Both the position numbers and the translations under genes were made by a program. Below the pieces are notes generated by a model. It saw only the letters and a list, made by a program, of their open reading frames with translations, did no database searches and had not been told where the DNA came from. 64,000 bases of DNA from Rhodospirillales bacterium (GTDB taxonomy: Bacteria; Pseudomonadota; Alphaproteobacteria; Bin95), in NCBI GenBank assembly GCA_038143065.1, contig JAYQLI010000035.1, forward strand, positions 1,696,894 to 1,760,893, given 5' to 3'. The stretch's first letter is position 1. Each line of letters opens with the position of its first letter. This document shows, piece after piece, positions 38,303-50,216 of the stretch.

Positions 38303-38800
38303 TCGAAAACCTCATTAGGCAGAAAACCCCAAACAGAGCTGCGAGAGATCCATCCAGAGATATCTCCCTTGCGAGCTTCGCACCACTGCGGCTCACATTT
38401 TTTTGCTCTGAGGACGACGCCCTTCTCAACAAAAGCCTCCACCCGAGCATCTGACTTGCCCTTTGATAATAAAGGTGCTCGAGATGCAGTAACGTAGAGA
38501 GTGCGCGCTCCGCTCAGCAGTGGTGCATAAAGCCACCCCCTCTCACCATCATATAATTCAACTTCTCTCCACTGTTCCTCTTCATCGACAATCATTACTG
38601 GCATGCTGGCGCGCATAAGGCGCCACCGAACAGGATACTGGCCACCTGGCCCCACACGAAGATTTGCTTCATTTGCGCGAATTGATACGTATCTCGGAAT
38701 AGGGAGATTTGTGACTTTACCTACAAGGGGTCTCTTGAGCCGTCCCAGGGCCGGCGAATAAAACACCTAATAAAAACACAGCAAACGAGCGACTAATCAT
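38299..38800 (-). CDS. Exported bacterial SH3 domain protein, frameshifted near 38730
   Basis: LPIPRYVS..EANLRVGPG..YP, WREV...GWL, WC....GWI..VWG. Signal peptide MISRSFAVFLLGVLFAG begins at ATG 38800, overlapping the fbiC stop. Confidence 0.82.
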
Positions 38801-41241
38801 GCGCGCTCGTATTCCTTAGCAGCCCTATTAATAATCGGCGCCAATGGTGCCGCTTGCCGGGCGCGCTGTTGCTGGCTCTCAGGAGGAAAACCGTAGAGGG
38901 TTGCGCGCTGGCGGATTGGCCGCCCAATTCCGTAGGCTACTGCCTCCATGGCGTGGGGAGGCATCTCTTCGCCGTGGGCCGCGCCTGCAGCTCTTGTAAT
39001 ACTCTCATTCATGAGCGTCCCACCAATATCATTGGCACCCGCTTTGAGGGCAGCTGCAACACCTTCACTGCCAAGCTTTACCCAACTCGCTTGAATATTG
39101 GAGAACCATGGGAATAAAGCCAAACGAGCGACGCTATGCATTAGTATAGCTTCGCGGAATGTTGGCCCCATCCTGGCTAGCCCCTTCAGGTAGATGGGAG
39201 CTTCCTCCGCAACAAATGGAAGGGGTACTAATTCCGAAAACCCTCCACTCTCACTTTGAGCCTGACGAAGGCGCAGTAGGTGTCGTGCCCAATGCCTGTA
39301 ACTTTCCATATGCCCAAACATGATGGTCGCAGTTGAGCGGAGACCTATTTCATGAGCCGCGCGCATGACACCGAACCACTCTGCCGTATTCAGTTTGTCG
39401 GGACAAAGTGTTGCGCGAACCTCATCATCGAGAATTTCTGCAGCCGTACCCGGAAGAGTTCCAAGGCCAGCTTCCTTCAACATCAGAAGGAATTCTTGAA
39501 TAGGCATCCCCAGGGTCTCTGCCCCCTGCTTCACTTCCAGTGGAGTAAAAGCATGCACGTGAATATCAGGAGCTGCCGCTTTGACCGCCTCAAGAATATC
39601 TAGATAAGTTTTTCCAGTGTAAGCCGGGTGAATACCACCTTGGAGACAAACTTCAGTGGCGCCTCGTTCCCACGCTTCAGCTGTACGCCGACCAATTTCA
39701 TCAAGATCAAGAACGTAGGGCTGCCCTCTTAGGTTTTCAGTCAGTTTTCCCTTTGAGAAGGCGCATAATTGGCACTTGAAATAGCAGACGTTGGTGTAAT
39801 TGATATTGCGGTTTACTACATACGTCAGAGTATCACCCGATACTTCCTGACGAAGTGCATCTGCAGCAGCAGCTACAGCACTGAAGGCATCTCCACGAGC
39901 CTCGAAAAGTTCTTCAGCCTCATCCTCAGAGAGCATCCGATCCGCAAACGGCTTATCGAGGATCCGCGCCAAGCGAGAACCTATAATTGGGGCCTTGCGA
40001 GCCGCCAACAAATCTAAATCTTCTTTCGGAGCATCCGGTGACTTGCCCGTAACAAAACCATCAGTTCTTGCATAACCCTGTCCATCCATTGCTCTGCGGA
40101 CGGCAGGAGCTAGCTTGGCATCAATCCAGCGCGCAGCATCGACTGCATATGATGGATAAACCGTAAGTCTTTCAACGAGCAATTTACCGGCGGCGGCGGT
40201 TTCATCGGCAAGGCGCTGAAGGTGTGGCCAGGGAGCTTCAGGATTTACAAAGTCCGGTGTTACGGGTGATACGCCGCCCCAATCATTCACTCCTGCAGCG
40301 ACAAGGCGCACTAAACCGCCTGGAGAAAGATTAGGAGGCGCCTGGACACTCATTTGGCCGCCAAGAATTAGTCGAGCAACTGCTATAGTCCAGGCGAGGT
40401 CGTCGAGATCTGGTTCAGGCCAATCACGCATCTTGGTGTCAGGCTTCGCGCGGAAGTTTTGAATAATAACTTCCTGGATATGGCCGTACGCCTCGTGGAC
40501 CCGCCTGATTTCTAAGAGTGCTTCAATGCGCTCTACTCGTGTTTCACCAATGCCAATTAAGATGCCTGTGGTGAAGGGAACAGAAGCTCGGCCAGCTGCT
40601 TCCAGCGTTTCAATTCTAGCCATTGGACGCTTATCAGGAGAGCCATAATGCGGCATTCCCTTTTCAGTAAGACGCTCGGAAAGGCTCTCGACCATAATTC
40701 CCATAGAGGCAGAGACTGCGCGCAGCGCGCCCAAGTCTTCATCCGTCATTAAACCCGGGTTGAGGTGAGGAATTATACCCGTTTCCTCAAATACCAACTT
40801 CGCCATTGCCGCCAGATATTCAAGGGTCGTCGCATAGCCGAGCTCAGCCAACATCTCACGAGCGGCCCGATACCGAAGTTCCGGCTTATCACCCAGAGTA
40901 AAGAGAGCTTCCTTGCACCCCTGTGCCGCCCCAGCTCGAGCAGCTTCCAAAACCTGGTCAGGGGTCATAAAGACCGCCTCCCCCTTCTTGGGAGGCTTTG
41001 CAAACGTGCAGTAATGACAGACGTCGCGACACAAGTGGGTAAGGGGAATAAACACCTTACGGCTGTAAGAGATCTTATCCCCCCAATGAGCATCGCGAAG
41101 AGAAGCAGCAGCGGCAGTGAGGGGGATTAAGTCCTCTGCGCTAGTATCGGCCAAGACCAATGCCTCATCAGCGTAGAGCCTTGCTCCACCTGCAGCAGCA
41201 GCAATAATTTCGTCTAATGAGTGGTCCATCGGCGACGTCAA
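38797..41241 (-). CDS. fbiC: Bifunctional FO synthase (CofG-CofH fusion), F420 biosynthesis
   Basis: Two radical-SAM motifs, CRDVCHYC (ISYSRKVFIPLT...GCKEALFTLGDKPE) and CYFKCQLC (TYVVNRNINYTN...PGTAAEIL); GVNDWGGVSPVT. Confidence 0.95.
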   Translation of the reverse strand: MTSPMDHSLDEIIAAAAGGARLYADEALVLADTSAEDLIPLTAAAASLRDAHWGDKISYSRKVFIPLTHLCRDVCHYCTFAKPPKKGEAVFMTPDQVLEAARAGAAQGCKEALFTLGDKPELRYRAAREMLAELGYATTLEYLAAMAKLVFEETGIIPHLNPGLMTDEDLGALRAVSASMGIMVESLSERLTEKGMPHYGSPDKRPMARIETLEAAGRASVPFTTGILIGIGETRVERIEALLEIRRVHEAYGHIQEVIIQNFRAKPDTKMRDWPEPDLDDLAWTIAVARLILGGQMSVQAPPNLSPGGLVRLVAAGVNDWGGVSPVTPDFVNPEAPWPHLQRLADETAAAGKLLVERLTVYPSYAVDAARWIDAKLAPAVRRAMDGQGYARTDGFVTGKSPDAPKEDLDLLAARKAPIIGSRLARILDKPFADRMLSEDEAEELFEARGDAFSAVAAAADALRQEVSGDTLTYVVNRNINYTNVCYFKCQLCAFSKGKLTENLRGQPYVLDLDEIGRRTAEAWERGATEVCLQGGIHPAYTGKTYLDILEAVKAAAPDIHVHAFTPLEVKQGAETLGMPIQEFLLMLKEAGLGTLPGTAAEILDDEVRATLCPDKLNTAEWFGVMRAAHEIGLRSTATIMFGHMESYRHWARHLLRLRQAQSESGGFSELVPLPFVAEEAPIYLKGLARMGPTFREAILMHSVARLALFPWFSNIQASWVKLGSEGVAAALKAGANDIGGTLMNESITRAAGAAHGEEMPPHAMEAVAYGIGRPIRQRATLYGFPPESQQQRARQAAPLAPIINRAAKEYERA

Positions 41242-42266
41242 ATTCCAGATCGAACAGCCGGGAAAACTTCCTCGGCCAACAATTGCATTTGGTCCAATAC
41301 CATAGACTGCGGCATCCCAGGAAATTGGACGCCGAAGACAAAGTGATTAACACCAAAATTGCGCACGATGTCTATAATTTGATTCGACACTTCTTCTGGA
41401 GAGCCAAAGAGGAAACGGTCCTTAACTAGCTCATCAAATATAAGGCCAAGATTATCGTCACCCTTCGGCATAACCTTATCCTGACCCCATTCGTGATAAG
41501 CGTCGTATTTTGCCTTTAGAAAGGGTTCTGCCATGCGCATTGCTTCTTCTCTGCTGCGCGCAACCACGACCTCACGCATCATTGGAAAGTCTTCAGGGAG
41601 ATCACTTTTACCCGCATCCTCCAGAGCCTTTTTGTAAACATCCATCTGACGGGCAATGGTATCAATTCGGTTGTGAGGGTTTACAAACCAAGCATCAGCA
41701 ACTCGCGCAGCTCTAATGATTGCCTTATCTGCATTAGCTCCAACCCAAATTGGCGGCATAGGCTTTTGTAGCGGCTTTACTGGACAGCTTGCATCTAACA
41801 AGTTGAAGTGACTGCCCTGCATGGTGACTTTTTCTTCAGTCCACAAACGCTTCACAGCTTCAAGGTTTTCCTCCAAGCGCTGGCCCGCGCCCTTCATCGT
41901 CGTGCCGAAGGCCTGAAACTCAACTTCTCGGTAGCCCACGCCAACGCCAAAAATTAATTTACCTCCTGACATGACGTCGATATTTGCAAATGTTTCCGCC
42001 ACATCGAGCGGCTTATGTAGAGGCAAAAGAACAATGCCCGCACAAAGTCTTAGATTTGGTGCCTCCGCCATAATTCGCGAGAGAAAGGGTACTTGCTGAA
42101 AATCCAGGAGTGGGTAGGCAGAATAGTGGCTGCCCTTCATTAAGGTGTCGAAGCCCAGCTTGTCTGCCAAACGGGCCTGCTCACAAGCTTCCTGGAAACG
42201 AGCGTACATATCGTCGCCAAGTGGGTTTTGGCCGCGATTGAAAAGGCTGAAACGAATATTGGACAT
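41238..42266 (-). CDS. Luciferase-like (LLM class) oxidoreductase, possibly F420-dependent
   Basis: ADKLGFD, LLPLHKPLDVAE, GVGVGYR..EF, KPLQKPMPPIWVG, FGSPEEV; lies between cofC and fbiC. Confidence 0.85.
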   Translation of the reverse strand: MSNIRFSLFNRGQNPLGDDMYARFQEACEQARLADKLGFDTLMKGSHYSAYPLLDFQQVPFLSRIMAEAPNLRLCAGIVLLPLHKPLDVAETFANIDVMSGGKLIFGVGVGYREVEFQAFGTTMKGAGQRLEENLEAVKRLWTEEKVTMQGSHFNLLDASCPVKPLQKPMPPIWVGANADKAIIRAARVADAWFVNPHNRIDTIARQMDVYKKALEDAGKSDLPEDFPMMREVVVARSREEAMRMAEPFLKAKYDAYHEWGQDKVMPKGDDNLGLIFDELVKDRFLFGSPEEVSNQIIDIVRNFGVNHFVFGVQFPGMPQSMVLDQMQLLAEEVFPAVRSGI

Positions 42267-42294
42267 AGCTTAAAGCCCCCGGGTCCTGATTTCT

Positions 42295-42972
42295 CTATGA
42301 TTGCAGGGACGAGATACGTTTTGCAATCCCATTAGACCGTGCATAAGTAATACCCCTACTAACCCGGCCAACCTCTAATGCTCGCCCTAGGTCTTCTGGC
42401 GTATCCACATCTATCGCAATACCAATTAAATCTTCAATAATATTAGGAACAACTCCAGCTTTAGCAGCTTCAGCAAGGTGTGGCTCGAAGCTTACATGGC
42501 CAAAGTGCAAAGAAATTAGGTCGCCCGGAGTGAGAACCAAGCAGTTTGACCCTCTTCGCGCATGGTCCGGCGCAATGGACATAGCAGGTCGGGCTTTAGG
42601 ATGCTGAGCAATCATCAAGTCGATTTCAGATGACGTCACGAGAGGCACATCGGCAGGAAGCGTTAAGACCCCCTCGGCGCCTTCCTCCTTTAACAATCGA
42701 GCAGCACGCTCAACGGCCTCCGATTGGCCAATGTTTTCCGGCTCCCCTTCCACGCGCGCACCATAACGCTTTGCCAGCTCCGAAGCGGAGGGATCGTTGG
42801 TCAGCACTAATGTTCCGGCAAGGCCAACGGCGCCTGCAGCTGCAGCCAAAACATCCTCTGCCATCGCTTGAAATAGTCCTTGTCTTTCCTCCGGCGTAAG
42901 TACGGGGGCAAGACGCGTCTTAGCGTTTACAAGATCCTTGATAGGGATGACGCACCAGATACCATCACTCAT
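42295..42972 (-). CDS. cofC: Phospholactate/PEP guanylyltransferase, F420 biosynthesis
   Basis: VIPIK...AKTRLAPVL..EER, LPADVP, GSN, FGHVSF..H, DVDTPEDL. Confidence 0.9.
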   Translation of the reverse strand: MSDGIWCVIPIKDLVNAKTRLAPVLTPEERQGLFQAMAEDVLAAAAGAVGLAGTLVLTNDPSASELAKRYGARVEGEPENIGQSEAVERAARLLKEEGAEGVLTLPADVPLVTSSEIDLMIAQHPKARPAMSIAPDHARRGSNCLVLTPGDLISLHFGHVSFEPHLAEAAKAGVVPNIIEDLIGIAIDVDTPEDLGRALEVGRVSRGITYARSNGIAKRISSLQS

Positions 42973-43270: not shown

Positions 43271-43572
43271 GCGCCCTCCACCGCCAATCTGATCCACTCG
43301 GCAAGATCTTCCTCCAGCTCGTGACCTGCTGGAGACACACTAATAATACCCGGTATATCCGCCTCTCCCATCGGGTCTATTCTATTACGAGCGAGCGCTT
43401 CAGCTGCCGCATCAGGGGACATACGAAGAACAAGTTGGTCGTTGACCACGCCCGCGCACATACGCCCATCCAAATAAAACATTAGACCGCCAAATAATTC
43501 TCGCTCACTTGGCTCACCATAGGAAGACATTGCGCGCCGCACACGTTCAACGAGAATATCGTCATAAGGCAT
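43267..43572 (-). CDS. TfoX/Sxy N-terminal domain protein
   Basis: MPYDDILVERVR...ERELFGGLMFYLDGRMCAGV...L.LR...L.EWI. Confidence 0.8.
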   Translation of the reverse strand: MPYDDILVERVRRAMSSYGEPSERELFGGLMFYLDGRMCAGVVNDQLVLRMSPDAAAEALARNRIDPMGEADIPGIISVSPAGHELEEDLAEWIRLAVEGA

Positions 43573-43675
43573 AAACAGTTCGTCCCCCGAATATCAGTCA
43601 GAATTTCTGTTTTCTGCTTGGAATATACCCAAATAAAATTTGAAATGATGAATAATTAAAAAACATAAGGTGCGA

Positions 43676-44578
43676 CTATCCAGTAATGGCAGCAGCAACC
43701 AAATTCGCATCTGCGTACGCCCCAGAAACCTGACCATCATGCCCAGAGCGAGCGGCGCCAATAGCAAAAAGACCATTGATTGAAGTTTGGCAATTATGAT
43801 TAACAATAAGTGCCCCAGAAGCATCGCGGGCTACTGATGTTGGAACCAATTCAGTAGCCGGTTCAACGCCGACAAATACAAAGACCGCGCGGGTTTCAAT
43901 TCTCTCTACGCTACCACCGCAATTCACCTCTATCGCATCAACCCCCGTATCTCCAACGACTTCCAGAACAGATGCATCAGTCTTGATCTCAATATTTGTC
44001 TTACCTTCAGCCTCTGTTGTGAATTCGTGGCGGGCACGGGGTTCAGGGCCTCGTATTAATATTTGAACCTTCTTGCAAAGCGTTGCCAGATGCAGGGCCT
44101 CTTGGAAAGCCGCGTCACCGCCTCCTACTACAACGACCACTTCCTCCCCTCGGTACAACGCCCCATCACAAAACGCACAAGATGAAACGCCAAAACCGGT
44201 TAATCTCTCTTCTCCAGGCACCCCAAGTTTTTCAAGGCGAGCGCCCGTTGCCACCACCACATTTGGAGCCGACAATTCTAACTCGGGCAAGATCCAAAGA
44301 TTACCATGCTGCTCCAGGCTAGCGGCAGTTCCCATCCTGTAGTCAACACCCGCCTCCAATGCATTGCCTAAAAGAATGCCTGCAACATCCGCTCCCGATT
44401 GGCCCTCAATCCCTTCCGGACCCGTTAAATCTCCGACATTGGCTATCAGACCACCCATGTAACCATCATCAACGAGCGCCGTACTTACCCTCTTATTCGC
44501 CAAATCCGTAGCAGCTTTCATCCCAGCGGGACCTGCTCCGACTACAATGGCGGAATGGGTGGCCTCTACAGTAAACAT
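43676..44578 (-). CDS. Thioredoxin reductase-like flavoprotein (CAFC redox motif)
   Basis: VVGAGPAG, VVATGA..LGVPGEE..G.GVSSCAFCDG, VGGGDAA; the second FAD motif is altered (TSINGLFAIGA). Confidence 0.88.
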   Translation of the reverse strand: MFTVEATHSAIVVGAGPAGMKAATDLANKRVSTALVDDGYMGGLIANVGDLTGPEGIEGQSGADVAGILLGNALEAGVDYRMGTAASLEQHGNLWILPELELSAPNVVVATGARLEKLGVPGEERLTGFGVSSCAFCDGALYRGEEVVVVVGGGDAAFQEALHLATLCKKVQILIRGPEPRARHEFTTEAEGKTNIEIKTDASVLEVVGDTGVDAIEVNCGGSVERIETRAVFVFVGVEPATELVPTSVARDASGALIVNHNCQTSINGLFAIGAARSGHDGQVSGAYADANLVAAAITG

Positions 44579-44591
44579 CAGTCCATTACCC

Positions 44592-45593
44592 TCAAGGAAA
44601 AATCAGCGGCATGGTTTGGATCCTCGACCCTCCAGCCCAAATGGGAAGACACGTCATTTTTACGCCAGGACCGCCAGTTACAATTGGATGAATTGATCCA
44701 GGTTCAATGGCACCGGGCGCAGCGCTTTCAACTGACGCTATATCACCTAAAACCTGTCTACGATCTTGATGTATGAATGACTGTATTTCCGTAGTGCCCC
44801 AACCATGCTTCGCTAGGTCTGCAACCATTTCCGGGCCAATTAGAAAAATTTGATCACCGGCCTCGCGCATCCTCCCAGACCCGGCAACTGCACTCGCAGC
44901 TGCTAGCGCTGCGGCCATTGGAGCCAGAATTGCCTCTGGAGTATCACGTTCATCAAGAGGAAGGACTTCCATCGTCCCAGAAACTCCAAGAACAGTGACT
45001 GCATCAACAGAACCCAAACCTAGCCGCTCAGTTAGAGAGGGGAGACCTCCTAGGGGGTTTTCAGGGAAACAAAAGGCCAGCTTGCCCGGCTGGCCCATTG
45101 TAGCCATATCTCCGACGGTCTCTTTTGCCCCTCCTATATTCCTCAGAACAAGAGCGATCGCACGACCCAAAGTTGAATTTGCTCTATTCCCAGGCCCCAA
45201 ACAGTTAACGCCATGGTTCATGCCCAAATTCTCAGCAACTGGCCCGTGAACGATCGTTGCGACGGCCGGCGTCCCGGTCGTTGTCATAAGCCCCAAGAGG
45301 TTAAAGTCTGGATTTAACATCGCCGATACTGCAGTCAGAACGACTGGAACAGCCCCAGGCAGTGCTCCAGCCAGCACACAATTGTAAGCAACAGCCCTAG
45401 CCGTCAAATCACCAAACATCGGCATTACCATGCCGTGAGAGACATCCGGATTATTGACGCCAACTAGCATTGAAGAAAGGCGCGTCTCTGTTGGCGGCAC
45501 CATTGGCAAGCCATCAGATAAGCCAGCCTCTTCAAGCGTTGATTGTGCTTCCTCCCACGATAAAGCAGGATCTAAGATGGGCCAATTACTCAA
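44592..45593 (-). CDS. Uncharacterised protein, UGSC-operon partner 2
   Basis: Probable TTG start at 45593 overlapping the upstream TGA. Motifs GLSDGLPMVPPT, NCLGPGNRANSTLGRA, DMATMGQPGK.AFCF.EN are shared with partner 1. Confidence 0.85.
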   Translation of the reverse strand: MSNWPILDPALSWEEAQSTLEEAGLSDGLPMVPPTETRLSSMLVGVNNPDVSHGMVMPMFGDLTARAVAYNCVLAGALPGAVPVVLTAVSAMLNPDFNLLGLMTTTGTPAVATIVHGPVAENLGMNHGVNCLGPGNRANSTLGRAIALVLRNIGGAKETVGDMATMGQPGKLAFCFPENPLGGLPSLTERLGLGSVDAVTVLGVSGTMEVLPLDERDTPEAILAPMAAALAAASAVAGSGRMREAGDQIFLIGPEMVADLAKHGWGTTEIQSFIHQDRRQVLGDIASVESAAPGAIEPGSIHPIVTGGPGVKMTCLPIWAGGSRIQTMPLIFP

Positions 45594-46629
45594 CGTATCG
45601 GCAGTCGCTCTGAGCAAGCTTCAGTGAAACCAAAAGTTGGAATGACTGCAGAATGTTTGCCCGGCCCTCCCGCCACGACAACCTGAATATCCTCTGGAGT
45701 ACGAGAGTGGTAATAACGGCCATTCTGAATGACTTGACCGCGCTCTTCGTAATTTTTCTGATTTTCTTTCGACACTCGCTCAACTGGCGTTGCACTGTCG
45801 TGATGCAATTTTCTTGAATTGCAGGAACTGTCCAACCATCCCGTTTCATTGTAGCTGCGTGTTCCGGCCCTATGACCACCATAAATGGAGCAGATCCATA
45901 TATAGTGTTCGCTCCCGTCTGTGATATCGAACCGGCAATAGTTTGCAGTAGTCCATCACCAGTCGTGCTGCCATGATCATTAACATTGTGCGGTGGTTCC
46001 GCAGGCAGGAGAGTAACTACACTGTCTTCAGCATTAAAACCACGGCGAACGTGGTACGGCTCCCAAGGGCTCTCTTCTTCATTCTCACCAAAACAGAATG
46101 AGTACTTTGCCGGCGAACCCTGTGTTGAGCGATCCATATCGCCTGGCTTGCCCCCTCCTACGTTCATCATAGTGAGCATCAAAGCCCTGCCTATAGAGGC
46201 GTTTGAACGCCATCCCTGACCAAAACAGTTCGCACCACAGTTAATTCCCATGACGTTCCGAGCAGGACCATTGACTACAATCATCGGCGCGCATGGATGC
46301 GTGGTAGCTAGCGTTCCGTGCAGGTTGTAATCGGGGTTTAAAATGGCACGGACCGCAGCAACCACTGCCGGGAAATATTCCGGTTTACAACCCGCCATTA
46401 CAGCATTCGCCGCAATTGTTTCTAGGGTGGGCAGGACAAGACGCGGAGACATTGGTGGAAAGGGAGCATTGTCTCCATGACAAGTCGCAACACACGCGGC
46501 AACTTTTGCTTCCGTTGGTGGGATCATAGGCATGCCATCGCTCCAACCCTGTTCGATGGCAAAATCATTAAATGCGTCAAAGTCCATATCGCCGAGGTCT
46601 AATACCTCGTCGTTCAGGGGGTCGCTCAT
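45590..46629 (-). CDS. Uncharacterised protein, UGSC-operon partner 1, frameshifted near 45810
   Basis: GWSDGMPMIPPT, IAANAVMAGCKPEYFP, NCFGQGWRSNASIGRA, DRSTQGSPAKYSFCFGENEEESPW. The C-terminus continues in ORF 45590-45835 (PEDIQVVVAGGPGKHS). Confidence 0.85.
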
Positions 46630-46650
46630 AGAAGCTCCTGAATTAATGAA

Positions 46651-46676
46651 GGCCGACGATCGATAGACCGTCGGCC
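46651..46676 (-). terminator. Intra-operon hairpin between the selenoprotein gene and partner 1
   Basis: Minus-strand RNA GGCCGACGGUC-UAUC-GAUCGUCGGCC (11 bp, one G-U) followed by UUCAUUAAUU. Confidence 0.6.
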
Positions 46677-46682
46677 AAATTG

Positions 46683-47207
46683 TTAGGCCGCTAGGACCGT
46701 CTTAAGTTCACCAAACGCCGTCTGAATGCGTTCCCTTAATTCTTCTTCATTTAAGCCGCCCACGGGGTGCTTAACAATTAGAAGTTTAGGATTTGCACCC
46801 CGAGCTTTTGCTTGCGCGCGAACCAGCGGCAAGAAAGTCTCAGTGATGACAATGTAGGTTTCAACGCCCGCTTCTTCAAAGGTCATGCTGTCATGGAAAC
46901 TCCACGACGAACATGACCCTCAATCCGCTAAGGCGACGATGGCACCCCGATAATTATTGACTACACGCTCAACTAACTCGGGAGGCGCTGGATGGGCGGC
47001 ACTTGGTTTGTCCATGTAATCGACGTTATCGATGGACCTAAACTCACCCATCAGCTTGCGAACCCCCTGGAGTAACTCCATAGCGTTGGGCTTTGAATTT
47101 GAAATGATGGCTACCGGATCGTTGAGCCAATCTGTTGGGCTTTTAGCTGATGCGGTCTTTGCACCCGCATCCTCCTGCCTGCCAAAGGAAGGGTTAACGA
47201 TGCGCAT
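46683..47207 (-). CDS. UGSC-family selenoprotein, 174 aa, Sec (UGA) at codon 96 (46920-46922)
   Basis: ORFs 46920-47207 and 46683-46886 are in one frame: ...GAIVALAD-[UGA]-GSCSSWSFHDSMTFEEAGVET...HPVGG... Also N-terminal NSKPNA and KPSAAHPAP, strong RBS GAGGAGG, and a hairpin directly 3' of the UGA. Confidence 0.88.
46881..46918 (-). other. Putative bacterial SECIS element
   Basis: RNA after UGA-G: GGUCAUGUU-C-GUCGUGGA-GUU-UCCAUGAC-AGCAUGACC. 9-bp lower stem, single C bulge, 8-bp upper stem; the apical loop G lies 20 nt after the UGA. Confidence 0.8.
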
Positions 47208-47236
47208 GGGTTTTCCTCCTCACGCAATGAAATTCA

Positions 47237-47298
47237 CCTCAAAGAGTTTGAGGCTTGCTGAAAGAGTTTACGAAGTGCCGCCGTTGCTGCAAAGAGTT
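47237..47298. repeat. Three AAAGAGTT direct repeats in the leader of the selenoprotein operon
   Basis: AAAGAGTT at 47241, 47261 and 47291. Two are preceded by TTGCTG(C); the first sits in the palindrome CCTCAAA-gag-TTTGAGG. Confidence 0.6.
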
Positions 47299-47563
47299 CC
47301 GAGGAAAGAAGGTAAAAATATCTAAAAATTAATACTTAAATTCTAATGAAGGCTTTGATACGTCGATCGCAATAATGCGCAAAATATTGTGCTGCCGATG
47401 CCTGACGCGCTCAATTTCCCGCGAACAAGAAGCTAGTTGCACGAGCACCAAGAAAGCTCGAGCCAATGCTCTGTGGCATCAGCAGCATTTTCTTACTAGA
47501 TCAGCTATCAGCAGTATTTCACAAGCTAACCTATGGTTCTGTATTTTAGGAAATGCATCATAG

Positions 47564-47587
47564 ACGGTGGGGCAAGGACCCCACCGT
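47564..47587. terminator. GC-rich hairpin downstream of the Cys-rich gene
   Basis: ACGGTGGGG-caagga-CCCCACCGT; no clear U-tract. Confidence 0.5.
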
Positions 47588-47606
47588 TGATCCGCAGACT
47601 TGAAAC

Positions 47607-48681
47607 CTACTTACCGAAGTATTTGCTGCACTTTGGATAGGTGTAAGAGGCAACCACATCAGCAACACCACTTGTATCAACGATGGCAGCAATCTGCGCC
47701 GACATGCGTATCAAGTCTTCCTCCGTGACGGCACTTTTCCCAGTATTATAAGCCGTATACCCCTTCAAAAAGGGCTGGGCATTATCGTAGGCCGTTTTAC
47801 CAGTGTTATAAGCTGTTTCAGCGTTCTGAAGAGCAGGAGACGCTTTTTTAGCCGCCTCATATGCTTCTTTTAATTCTTCAAATTTCTTTTTAAGTTTAGC
47901 AAGCTTGCTTGTGTCGTCTGCCGAAGAGGCCGCTTTTGACGCTGCCCCCGAGCCACCGGCAGTTGAGATGTTGAGCGCTAAATTCCCGACGGAACTGACC
48001 TGACCAAAGACAATCGAAGCGCATGTAGCACTGTCTTTTGCTGTCCCCATACCGCAATTCACCCAGCCCTTTGGATTTTGTGCCCAACAGACCGGACCCA
48101 CGCCCTTGAAATTGGCAGGGCATTTTTTGTAGCACAGCCCAGCATCCAGTTGCTTACCGCTACATCCTTTGTTGCGGATCTTTCCTACCTCAATTTTTTT
48201 CTCGCACGAATAATCTGCTATCCGTGCCCCCATACCCAAAGCCTTGCAGTTTGGCTTGTTGGCGTAACAGAAAAGCCCTTTTTTGTGTAACCGTCGCGGC
48301 ATTTTTTATACCATAACGCTCCATCTTTTTCACAATCCTGTTTGGTTGCCTTTTTACAGGCTTTCTTTGATGTCCAACCACCGCCTCGGCCATAATCAGC
48401 TTTTTCTTTTCTGCAATAAAGGCCGTCGTCTCGCATGCCGTCCGGGCAAACAGTGTGGCAGTCTACGCCAGAACGCTTCTTACCTATTGGACACCTTTTG
48501 TAGCAAAGCTCCCCAACTTTTCCGCCCCACGTGGGCATTTTGAGGGAACAGTACCCGCCCCGCGCGTAGTAGAATCCTTCCAACAAAACTCTGCCTGCTG
48601 TGCCGTCGCGCCCTGCGCCGCAAAGGCAAGCATTAGGAAAGTTGTCAAATAAATGAATATACGCGGGATAAAATTTGTCAT
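47607..48681 (-). CDS. Secreted cysteine-rich repeat protein (~358 aa), two frameshifts in A-runs (~48520, ~48282)
   Basis: ATG 48681 with RBS; signal peptide ending ATA-Q. Three ORFs join by adding one A each; three LCYKxC-type repeats. Confidence 0.8.
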
Positions 48682-48777
48682 TTTACTCTCTGACAATAAT
48701 GAAGTAGCTCGAAAAAATGTAAACAAAGATACAAAGCAGAGCAAACTCAGCAAAATTTCTCTAGAATTAATCCCTCA

Positions 48778-49224: not shown

Positions 49225-50216
49225 ATGGACGTCGAACTTTCAATTGAGGATGCCAGAGCCTTAGCTGAACGCGTGCTCATCGCTCAGGGACAAAGAGCAG
49301 ACTACGCTTCCTTGATAACTGATCACCTCATAGACTGTGAACTTCGGGGCCTGGATTACGGCGGACTGCCACGACTTGTCAGTATCGTAGAACGGTTGGA
49401 GCGAACTGGACCTCCCCCAGGGCCCGTTGAAATCGTCCGCGAGACCCCTGTTTCTGCAAAGATTAAGGGACAAGATAATCTGGGCTACGTCGTCGCCTAC
49501 AAGGCCACAGAAATAGCGATTGCCAAAGCAAAGAACATGGGCCTTGCCGCCGTCGCCGGCGATGACACCTGGTACACTGGGATGCTTTCCTACTTTGCCG
49601 AGATGATGGCCGCTGAAGGCCTAGTCTCAATGATTGCCTCTAACGCTTCACCTTGGGTTGCGCCTGAGGGCGCTGTGGACGGGCGATTTGGCACAAATCC
49701 GATCTGCTACGGTTTTCCAAGCTTGGGTGACCCAATCATTTGGGACATAGGCACATCAAACATCATGCACGCGGAGGTACTCTAGCAAAGCGCCTAGGTA
49801 AACCTCTAGAACCAGGGAAAGCGTGGGATGCAGATGGTAAGCCAACTACAGACCCTGATGCGGCTCTCGCTGGAGCATTTACGGCTTGGGGCGGTCACAA
49901 AGGGTCCGGACTAGCGCATGTAGTGCAATTGCTAGGTGCAATGGCAGGATCACCAGTCATGCCACCCGATTTAGCCAAATTTGGTTTTGTGGTGATTGCG
50001 ATGAAACCCGATCTCTTTAACCCGGAGGCAGACTTTCGCGCTGCAGTTTCCGAATATGCCGACGCCGTTCGCACTGCCCGGCCAGTAGAAGGAGGGCCTC
50101 AACCCCGAATGCCCTTTGATCGTTCTGCAACACTGCGCAGAAAACGCAAGACTGCAAATATAATCCGAACGCCCCAACTGGCCTACGATCGACTGCTCGC
50201 TATGAGTGGCAGTTAA
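49225..50216 (+). CDS. Ldh_2 family oxidoreductase (malate/sulfolactate/ureidoglycolate dehydrogenase-like), frameshifted near 49780
   Basis: DHLIDCELRG..YGGL.R, FGTNPI, WDIGTS, DADGKPTTDP, WGGHKGSGLA. Confidence 0.88.

Follow-up and report, generated by a model that had tools for sequence, protein, structure and literature searches.

A probable UGSC-family selenoprotein gene with a conserved UGA codon, a SECIS-type hairpin and conserved partner genes in a Rhodospirillales bacterium

A stretch of 64,000 nucleotides (nt) from a Rhodospirillales bacterium (assembly GCA_038143065.1, contig JAYQLI010000035.1, positions 1,696,894 to 1,760,893), referred to below as the window, contains on its minus strand two small open reading frames (ORFs) separated by an in-frame TGA. 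An initial annotation, made from the sequence without database searches, had proposed that the two ORFs form one hidden selenoprotein gene with a selenocysteine (Sec) insertion sequence (SECIS) hairpin just behind the UGA. The features at the core of the locus are as follows.

47207 to 46683, minus strand: UGSC-family selenoprotein gene, 174 codons plus stop, with a lone in-frame TGA and a match to Pfam PF24696
47215 to 47221, minus strand: Shine-Dalgarno sequence GAGGAGG, read from the sequence, 7 nt before the ATG
46920 to 46922, minus strand: predicted Sec codon UGA (residue 96), TGA conserved among orthologues, with an RNA-library contig over 46813-46940
46876 to 46923, minus strand: predicted SECIS hairpin (ViennaRNA fold, z -5.05)

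The 95-amino-acid (aa) ORF (46920 to 47207, minus strand) and the 67-aa ORF (46683 to 46886, minus strand) share one frame, and translation of 47207 to 46683 gives 174 residues with the TGA at 46920-46922 as the sole internal stop (...IVALAD-U-GSCSSWSFHDSMTFEEAGVETY...), in agreement with what had been claimed. The N-terminal start MRIVNPSFG is common to the orthologues. TGA terminates 12 of the 36 ORFs of 250 aa or more in the window; it is an ordinary stop in this genome, and the codon is therefore not generally reassigned. The read-through protein matches the Pfam UGSC family PF24696 with 125.9 bits (E 2.4e-36; the gathering score is 25) over positions 2-170 of 172. With both halves covered by this match and the TGA conserved, the region from 47207 to 46683 (minus strand) very probably constitutes a single gene that encodes a UGSC-family selenoprotein of 174 residues, as the initial annotation had suggested when it ascribed the split to gene calling.

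The gene is a member of an already described family, and annotation splits it in two. UGSC has been known since 2005-2008. The passages on UGSC in the work of Zhang and Gladyshev, who described the family in the Sargasso Sea and Global Ocean Sampling (GOS) selenoproteomes, deem a thioredoxin (Trx)-like fold likely, report fusion to a conserved domain named Unknown_1, and rank UGSC with the most abundant selenoprotein families of ocean and freshwater metagenomes (PMC2398784). It is listed as uncharacterised in the relevant entries of reviews of 2022 (PMC9312934) and 2026 (PMC13188914), and full-text literature searches turned up no functional study of the family. The initial annotation had called UGSC a recognised, functionally uncharacterised family, which the two models PF24696 and NCBIfam NF041046 and the literature confirm; the word "hidden" holds for gene calling only and does not hold for the family, which these two models already represent.

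Conservation of the UGA column was followed by two routes. A search of 41 genomes with the protein returned the window copy and 16 orthologues (54-96% identity), and all 17 read LAD-U-GSC[ST]SW with one TGA per match, the copy in genome G018 having a TAG in addition. The second route used 80 loci from named genomes, some of them overlapping the first set, which were anchored on the neighbouring gene Unknown_1 B (described below). A UGSC orthologue lies within 3 kb in 74 of these loci and 73 of the 74 have TGA at the column, the remaining one being a partial match; the six loci without a UGSC match are 4.1-5.1 kb long and five of them end at a contig end. In a 21-row family alignment the D-U-G-S-C column contains TGA in 18 rows, Cys in one and Gly in two (the alignment was read under a code in which TGA is U, and terminal TGA stops became a trailing C in 12 rows; the motif is unaffected). 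The initial annotation had expected TGA or Cys at this column in homologues and continuous alignment across it, and the 18 TGA and one Cys rows, together with the single PF24696 match, bear this out, the two Gly rows apart. The genome itself has five UGSC copies, four with one TGA and a fifth, fused form in which D-G-G-T replaces the motif. Among 61 relatives searched the family was found in 41, including 36 of 36 from the same taxonomic family, and every match among the matches listed has a single TGA (43 matches are not listed). The family is uncommon at the level of the phylum, where an even sample of 301 genomes had 4 above the cut-off, among them the present genome and one with a Cys form. 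Of 81 database homologues, 78 comprise an N-terminal part only, 55% of the query; two of these fragments were inspected and stop at ...AD, directly before the U column. In the two full-length database homologues the column is occupied by G or W, which may come from translation of TGA with a different code. Searching 1.84 billion representatives with a profile yielded 5460 matches at E up to 0.001; 128 of the best 150 of these have Cys at the column, which is to be read as "Cys or Sec" because Sec may be stored as C in that database.

When 71 nt around the UGA were folded with ViennaRNA, a hairpin of 22 pairs was obtained, with a single bulged C, a GUU loop and the UGA itself within the stem. 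In the lower stem 46910-46923 pairs with 46876-46889; the bulged C is at 46909; in the upper stem 46901-46908 pairs with 46890-46897, and the loop is 46898-46900, its first base, a G, lying 20 nt past the UGA. The bulged 17-bp hairpin that had been noticed at 46881-46918 (9 bp, bulged C, 8 bp and GUU loop) is thus present as the inner part of the 22-pair fold, and the position given for the G that opens the apical loop, 20 nt downstream of the UGA, agrees. The fold energy is -31.3 kcal/mol versus -16.95 +/- 2.84 in 200 dinucleotide shuffles, none of which was as good (z -5.05). The mean pairwise synonymous difference is 0.17 in codons +1 to +15 and 0.08 in codons +4 to +11, compared to 0.46 upstream and 0.48 downstream, and the six lowest 15-codon windows of the gene begin at -1 to +4. 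On this evidence the low synonymous change over the hairpin codons indicates a constraint at the RNA level.

The hairpin was also compared among homologues. In the 17 orthologues 93.8% of hairpin cells are paired versus 37-52% when the structure is slid. Among 67 distinct sequences the upper stem-loop UCGUGGA-GUU-UCCAYGA is invariant in 67 of 67 save for G-U/G-C at one pair, and the long lower stem is specific to the lineage of the window, with 80.5% of cells paired. Two-sided changes were found in 16 cells in the 67 sequences versus 5.7 +/- 1.7 in shuffles (0 of 500 reach this number), and RNAalifold on the same sequences kept only the invariant upper stem and gave no compensatory pairs. Since the upper stem-loop is invariant and the lower stem lineage-specific, the conserved core is a 7-8-bp upper stem, 11 nt past the UGA, with a G and a U in the loop. 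The same layout past the UGA is found in the other three Sec-containing UGSC genes of the genome, and a looser version in its two GRDB-family genes (see below); a stem-loop with a GU-containing loop about 20-23 nt past the UGA is present in all six folded Sec genes of the genome.

The initial annotation had also recommended a look for the Sec machinery and for the TGA in reads. The genome carries selB (435 bits), selA (496 bits), selD (280 bits) and a tRNA-Sec, selC (71.5 bits, anticodon TCA, that is UCA in RNA), all four exceeding their cut-offs. Over 45500-47300 the window was compared with Logan contigs from four runs, two of DNA and two of RNA libraries: no listed difference falls at 46920-46922 (133 lesser differences are not listed), and public DNA and RNA-library contigs match the window there. 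One RNA-library contig (46813-46940) differs at 46851 only and so carries both the TGA and the hairpin. The summed depth of RNA-library contigs is higher over the UGSC gene than over the downstream genes; this was not used, since contig depth cannot rank genes. The sequence comparisons above identify the UGA at 46920-46922 as a conserved Sec codon; the SECIS behind it is constrained, and the same genome encodes Sec machinery.

The gene order on the minus strand is UGSC, Unknown_1 A, Unknown_1 B and a thioredoxin reductase (TrxR)-like gene. The partner genes, and two fusion genes elsewhere in the genome, are listed below.

45586 to 46629, minus strand: Unknown_1 paralogue A, a partner-family protein; frame broken near 45808-45813, the true C-terminus being encoded by the ORF 45590 to 45835
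44592 to 45617, minus strand: Unknown_1 paralogue B, 341 aa
43676 to 44578, minus strand: TrxR-like flavoprotein, 300 aa, with a CAFCDG (C-A-F-C-D-G) motif in the translation
Locus L024 of the same genome, 1471-3207: UGSC::Unknown_1 fusion, 578 aa, with C-U-G-S-C
Locus L025 of the same genome, 364-2013: UGSC::Unknown_1 fusion, 549 aa, with D-G-G-T in place of the motif and neither Sec nor Cys

Unknown_1 A and B are 31-34% identical. Intact orthologues of Unknown_1 A are 346 aa long. In the window one base of an A-run is lacking near 45808-45813 relative to G008, the closest relative (98.7% identical DNA), and four of four public runs have the extra base at 45808; the break is therefore an assembly error and not a sign of a pseudogene. 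With the base restored, Unknown_1 A ends at 45590 and overlaps the start of Unknown_1 B by 28 nt. The TrxR-like flavoprotein scores 190.7 bits with TIGR01292 (cut-off 343) and 119.9 bits with Pyr_redox_2. In the two fusion genes, the 578-aa Sec protein and the 549-aa form without Sec, the Unknown_1 domain is fused C-terminally to UGSC, and this domain is most probably the Unknown_1 of the GOS paper (PMC2398784). All five UGSC copies of the genome adjoin or are fused with Unknown_1, six of its seven Unknown_1 copies lie with UGSC, and of 25 further UGSC loci, 24 contain an Unknown_1 ORF. All 13 orthologous loci that reach through B retain the order UGSC, A, B (L040, L043 and L046 stop at a contig end), and among the 80 loci anchored on B, Unknown_1 A occurs in 77 and the TrxR-like gene in 50. 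The operon, with TGA in UGSC, both paralogues and the TrxR-like gene, is found in cultured-strain records as well, among them records titled Enhydrobacter aerosaccus ATCC 27094, Reyranella and Rhodospirillales bacterium URHD0017. In the alignment of the Unknown_1 family the Cys of an F-C-F motif (column C183) is nearly invariant, and Arg, Asp, Thr and Glu positions are invariant; an ESM Atlas search with Unknown_1 B returned unnamed clusters only. A promoter and terminator scan of 43400-47700 found fewer promoter-like sites than shuffles and nothing usable. A perfect 8-bp GC-rich inverted repeat (GGCCGACG...CGTCGGCC) at 46650-46676, between the UGSC stop and the Unknown_1 A start, was not called a terminator.

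Further genes flank the operon. Downstream of it, F420 biosynthesis genes occupy 38797-42972 (minus strand), with a bifunctional CofGH (1146 bits), an F420-type luciferase-like oxidoreductase and CofC (150 bits), and only a TfoX_N-like ORF and a 106-aa unknown ORF lie in between. ORFs rich in cysteine, of 231, 122 and 89 aa, lie just upstream of UGSC at 47607-48753 (minus strand). A repeated C-Y-K-[KR]-C-P is common to the 231-aa and 122-aa ORFs, and Pfam scans, which covered the 231-aa and 89-aa ORFs, assigned no family to either. At 49225-50216 (plus strand) a malate/L-lactate dehydrogenase (Ldh_2) gene is split into 186-aa and 158-aa ORFs in different frames that overlap at 49740-49785, probably another assembly indel.

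The AlphaFold2 (AF2) model of the UGSC protein, built from the 21-row alignment, has a mean predicted local distance difference test (pLDDT) score of 88.3 and a predicted template modelling (pTM) score of 0.81, and consists of five beta-alpha units in a flavodoxin-like arrangement. Sec96 opens the helix 97-112 directly after the strand 88-94; in the model Sec96 and Cys99 are thus placed like a redox-active UxxC pair at a helix N-terminus. A Foldseek search of the Protein Data Bank (PDB) gave generic matches with template modelling (TM) scores of 0.50 or less (lumazine synthase, ParF, the EF-Tu G domain and flavodoxins), and thioredoxin is absent from the best 50 PDB matches. A thioredoxin fold for UGSC was considered and finds no support in the predicted structure. 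The AF2 model of Unknown_1 B has a pLDDT of 84.5 and a pTM of 0.88. PDB sequence searches with UGSC, Unknown_1 and GRDB-like profiles found no relative.

The initial annotation had likened the UxxC-x11-EEAG spacing of the protein to the Sec region of the glycine and proline reductase components GrdB and PrdB, and the genome has two selenoproteins of the corresponding GRDB family, ...LLLPV-U-PNC... and ...LAAN-U-PVC....

Locus L066, contig C35 of the genome (G000), at about 2.093 Mb: GRDB-family (PrdB-like) selenoprotein gene, U-PNC
Locus L067, same contig, at about 1.681 Mb, 15 kb before the window: GRDB-family (PrdB-like) selenoprotein gene, U-PVC

The GRDB family is present in 36 of 36 same-family genomes searched. 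One of the GRDB-family copies in G018 is encoded on the strand opposite to the UGSC orthologue, about 400 bp away from it. UGSC and both GRDB-family selenoproteins have in common a strand, then U-x2-C-x11-E-x-A-G-[ILV]-[PE]-T, then a strand. Alignment of 21 UGSC sequences with 8 GRDB-like sequences by hhalign placed Sec on Sec over 72 columns (probability 50.7%, E 1.6e-4), and the E values with single sequences were 0.015 and 1.6e-4. A local re-run scored 35.7, versus 11-13 with reversed alignments and 21.4 +/- 2.3 (maximum 31.5) in 100 block shuffles, and still 29.8 when the U and C columns were masked. The Pfam GRDB model stops just before Sec, as seen on the GRDB proteins of this genome. 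The best 150 of the 5460 representative matches are all members of the UGSC family itself and are uninformative on a link to GrdB. The earlier comparison is therefore upheld in part, with the shared spacing and the Sec-on-Sec profile match on one side and the lack of a Pfam GRDB match on the other: UGSC is not a GRDB family member, and its Sec-bearing half is a probable distant homologue of the GRDB-type region.

The following scheme is proposed for the locus. By the established bacterial mechanism, SelB-GTP-Sec-tRNA(Sec) would bind the hairpin with the ribosome at the UGA, and Sec would be inserted at residue 96. The UGSC protein may then act as the redox-active subunit of an enzyme whose body is formed by the neighbouring Unknown_1 A and B, and the selenenyl-sulfide formed in UGSC after turnover would be re-reduced by the TrxR-like flavoprotein using NAD(P)H. 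Such a system would amount to a minimal counterpart of selenoprotein B from the glycine and D-proline reductases and would probably be distantly related to it. For UGSC as a redox subunit in an Unknown_1 A/B enzyme, with recycling by the TrxR-like flavoprotein after the fashion of selenoprotein B, we put the chance at about even. The wider proposal, which we advance tentatively as a plausible one falling a little short of an even chance, is that UGSC, Unknown_1 A/B and the TrxR-like protein constitute a so far undescribed selenoenzyme, driven by NAD(P)H, in aerobic alphaproteobacteria of aquatic and soil habitats; its Sec subunit would be an offshoot of selenoprotein B and its catalytic body would have a fold without a solved relative.

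Several observations weigh against these interpretations. The functional model takes its basis from gene neighbourhood and fusion alone. The link to GrdB/PrdB is weak (profile probability 51%), and the Pfam GRDB model (PF07355) gave no match to the UGSC protein at E up to 10. Neither Unknown_1 A nor B belongs to any Pfam (E up to 10) or NCBIfam family, so that no GrdE/PrdA-type (Gly_reductase) family was detected, and a PDB search with the model of Unknown_1 B gave no structural relative (TM of 0.30 or less for the best match, root-mean-square deviation about 16). As regards the hairpin, covariation in the 17 orthologues alone is not above shuffles (59 of 500), with two-sided change at one pair only, and the upper stem gives no covariation because it never varies. 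RNA-library contigs may contain DNA. The match to NF041046, "UGSC family (seleno)protein" (113.1 bits, E 1.1e-32, positions 5-146 of 147), is below the cut-off of 125, which, to judge from the sequence, marks a divergent subfamily and not failed homology. Finally, compared with G008 the selA gene has two compensating one-base indels 84 nt apart (locus L009, about 1470-1640; contig C35, about 594.7-594.9 kb, outside the window, from the alignment with G008) that shift 28 codons and create a TAA, and its ORF ends 18 codons short of the end of the profile match; if the indels were real, Sec synthesis could be impaired.

This last point leads to the rival readings. That the UGA is read through without selenocysteine, or that the gene is silent in this organism owing to the damaged selA, would account for the two compensating indels with the TAA between them. 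We consider it very improbable: both indels lie in or beside A-runs, as does the break in Unknown_1 A, which the four public runs expose as an assembly error; of five genomes of the same genus that were searched, four have an intact selA and one, 87% complete, yielded no match; and the SECIS and TGA are undecayed in a protein that is 94-96% identical to the orthologues of G005 and G008. The selA indels are, by this comparison, probably assembly errors. Such errors could equally raise the suspicion that the TGA itself is a sequencing error or a nonsense mutation in a pseudogene or assembly artefact, since the assembly has one-base homopolymer errors in Unknown_1 A (about 45808), in selA and in the split Ldh_2 (49225-50216). 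These are homopolymer indels and not substitutions, the TGA recurs in 17 of 17 and 73 of 74 orthologues, and the public contigs show no listed difference at the codon; this explanation retains hardly any probability. The same is true of the view that the UGA is a true stop between two separate small genes of 95 and 67 aa, which we find scarcely credible. Gene callers do yield this split, as the N-terminal fragments among the database homologues show (78 of 81, 55% of the query, the two inspected ones ending directly before the TGA), but a single Pfam match spans both halves, conservation extends over the 11 codons from the UGA to the next ATG, the C of UGSC among them, and homologues with Cys are undivided proteins (L063; 128 of the 150 best representatives). 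A more serious rival concerns function: the UGSC selenoprotein might be a free-standing thiol/selenol oxidoreductase, a thioredoxin-like antioxidant, and not a subunit of an Unknown_1 enzyme. The UxxC motif and the TrxR-like neighbour would suit such a role, and the literature, in its remarks on the family, views it as a probable Trx-fold redox protein (PMC2398784, PMC13188914). Against it stand the flavodoxin-like AF2 model with no thioredoxin in the best 50 PDB matches, and the adjacency or fusion of Unknown_1 in every copy of the genome and at 24 of the 25 further loci, a pattern that speaks for a dedicated partner. We judge a free-standing role unlikely, while giving it appreciable weight. 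If the wider proposal above is true, a selenoprotein that ranks among the commonest in the environment would gain a function. The conserved four-gene operon supplies partners that can be tested. Since this subfamily scores below the NCBIfam cut-off and 78 of 81 homologues are N-terminal fragments, standard gene calling keeps splitting UGSC.

The locus can be compared with known systems. Like the UGSC family in the published account, the window protein has about 175 aa, D-U-G-S-C with Sec and a full-length profile match, it adjoins Unknown_1 (as in the legend of Figure S1A) and it comes from an aquatic alphaproteobacterial setting (PMC2398784). It differs from the family as presented there in that its subfamily, UGSCSSWSFHD, is under the NCBIfam cut-off and is accompanied by two Unknown_1 paralogues and a TrxR-like gene instead of a single partner, and its AF2 model is flavodoxin-like, unlike the Trx-like fold suggested in 2008 (PMC2398784).

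Bacterial SECIS elements of the Escherichia coli fdhF type are the nearest comparison for the RNA. The fdhF SECIS has an 11-nt spacing and a GU loop. The window hairpin likewise lies directly 3' of the UGA and inside the coding region, with its upper stem 11 nt past the UGA, a bulged base below, and a G and a U in the apical loop; unlike the fdhF type, its stem sequence differs and its lower stem is unusually long (14 bp in this lineage) and takes in the UGA. The last gene of the operon resembles TrxB (TIGR01292) in its flavin adenine dinucleotide (FAD)/NAD(P)H fold and its CxxC-D-G motif (CAFCDG). It is unlike TrxB in its low score (190.7 bits against the cut-off of 343) and is only 30% identical to the second TrxR-like gene of the genome, which marks the flavoprotein as a dedicated paralogue distinct from the housekeeping enzyme.

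With GrdB and PrdB, the UGSC protein shares an architecture of beta-strand, U-x2-C, helix, E-x-A-G-[ILV]-P-T and strand, and, in the scheme proposed here, it may be pictured in the same way as a selenoprotein with a larger partner. It departs from them in being under half their length and in having no PF07355 match. GrdB and PrdB occur in Stickland fermenters, and the hosts of UGSC are aerobic-type marine and soil alphaproteobacteria.

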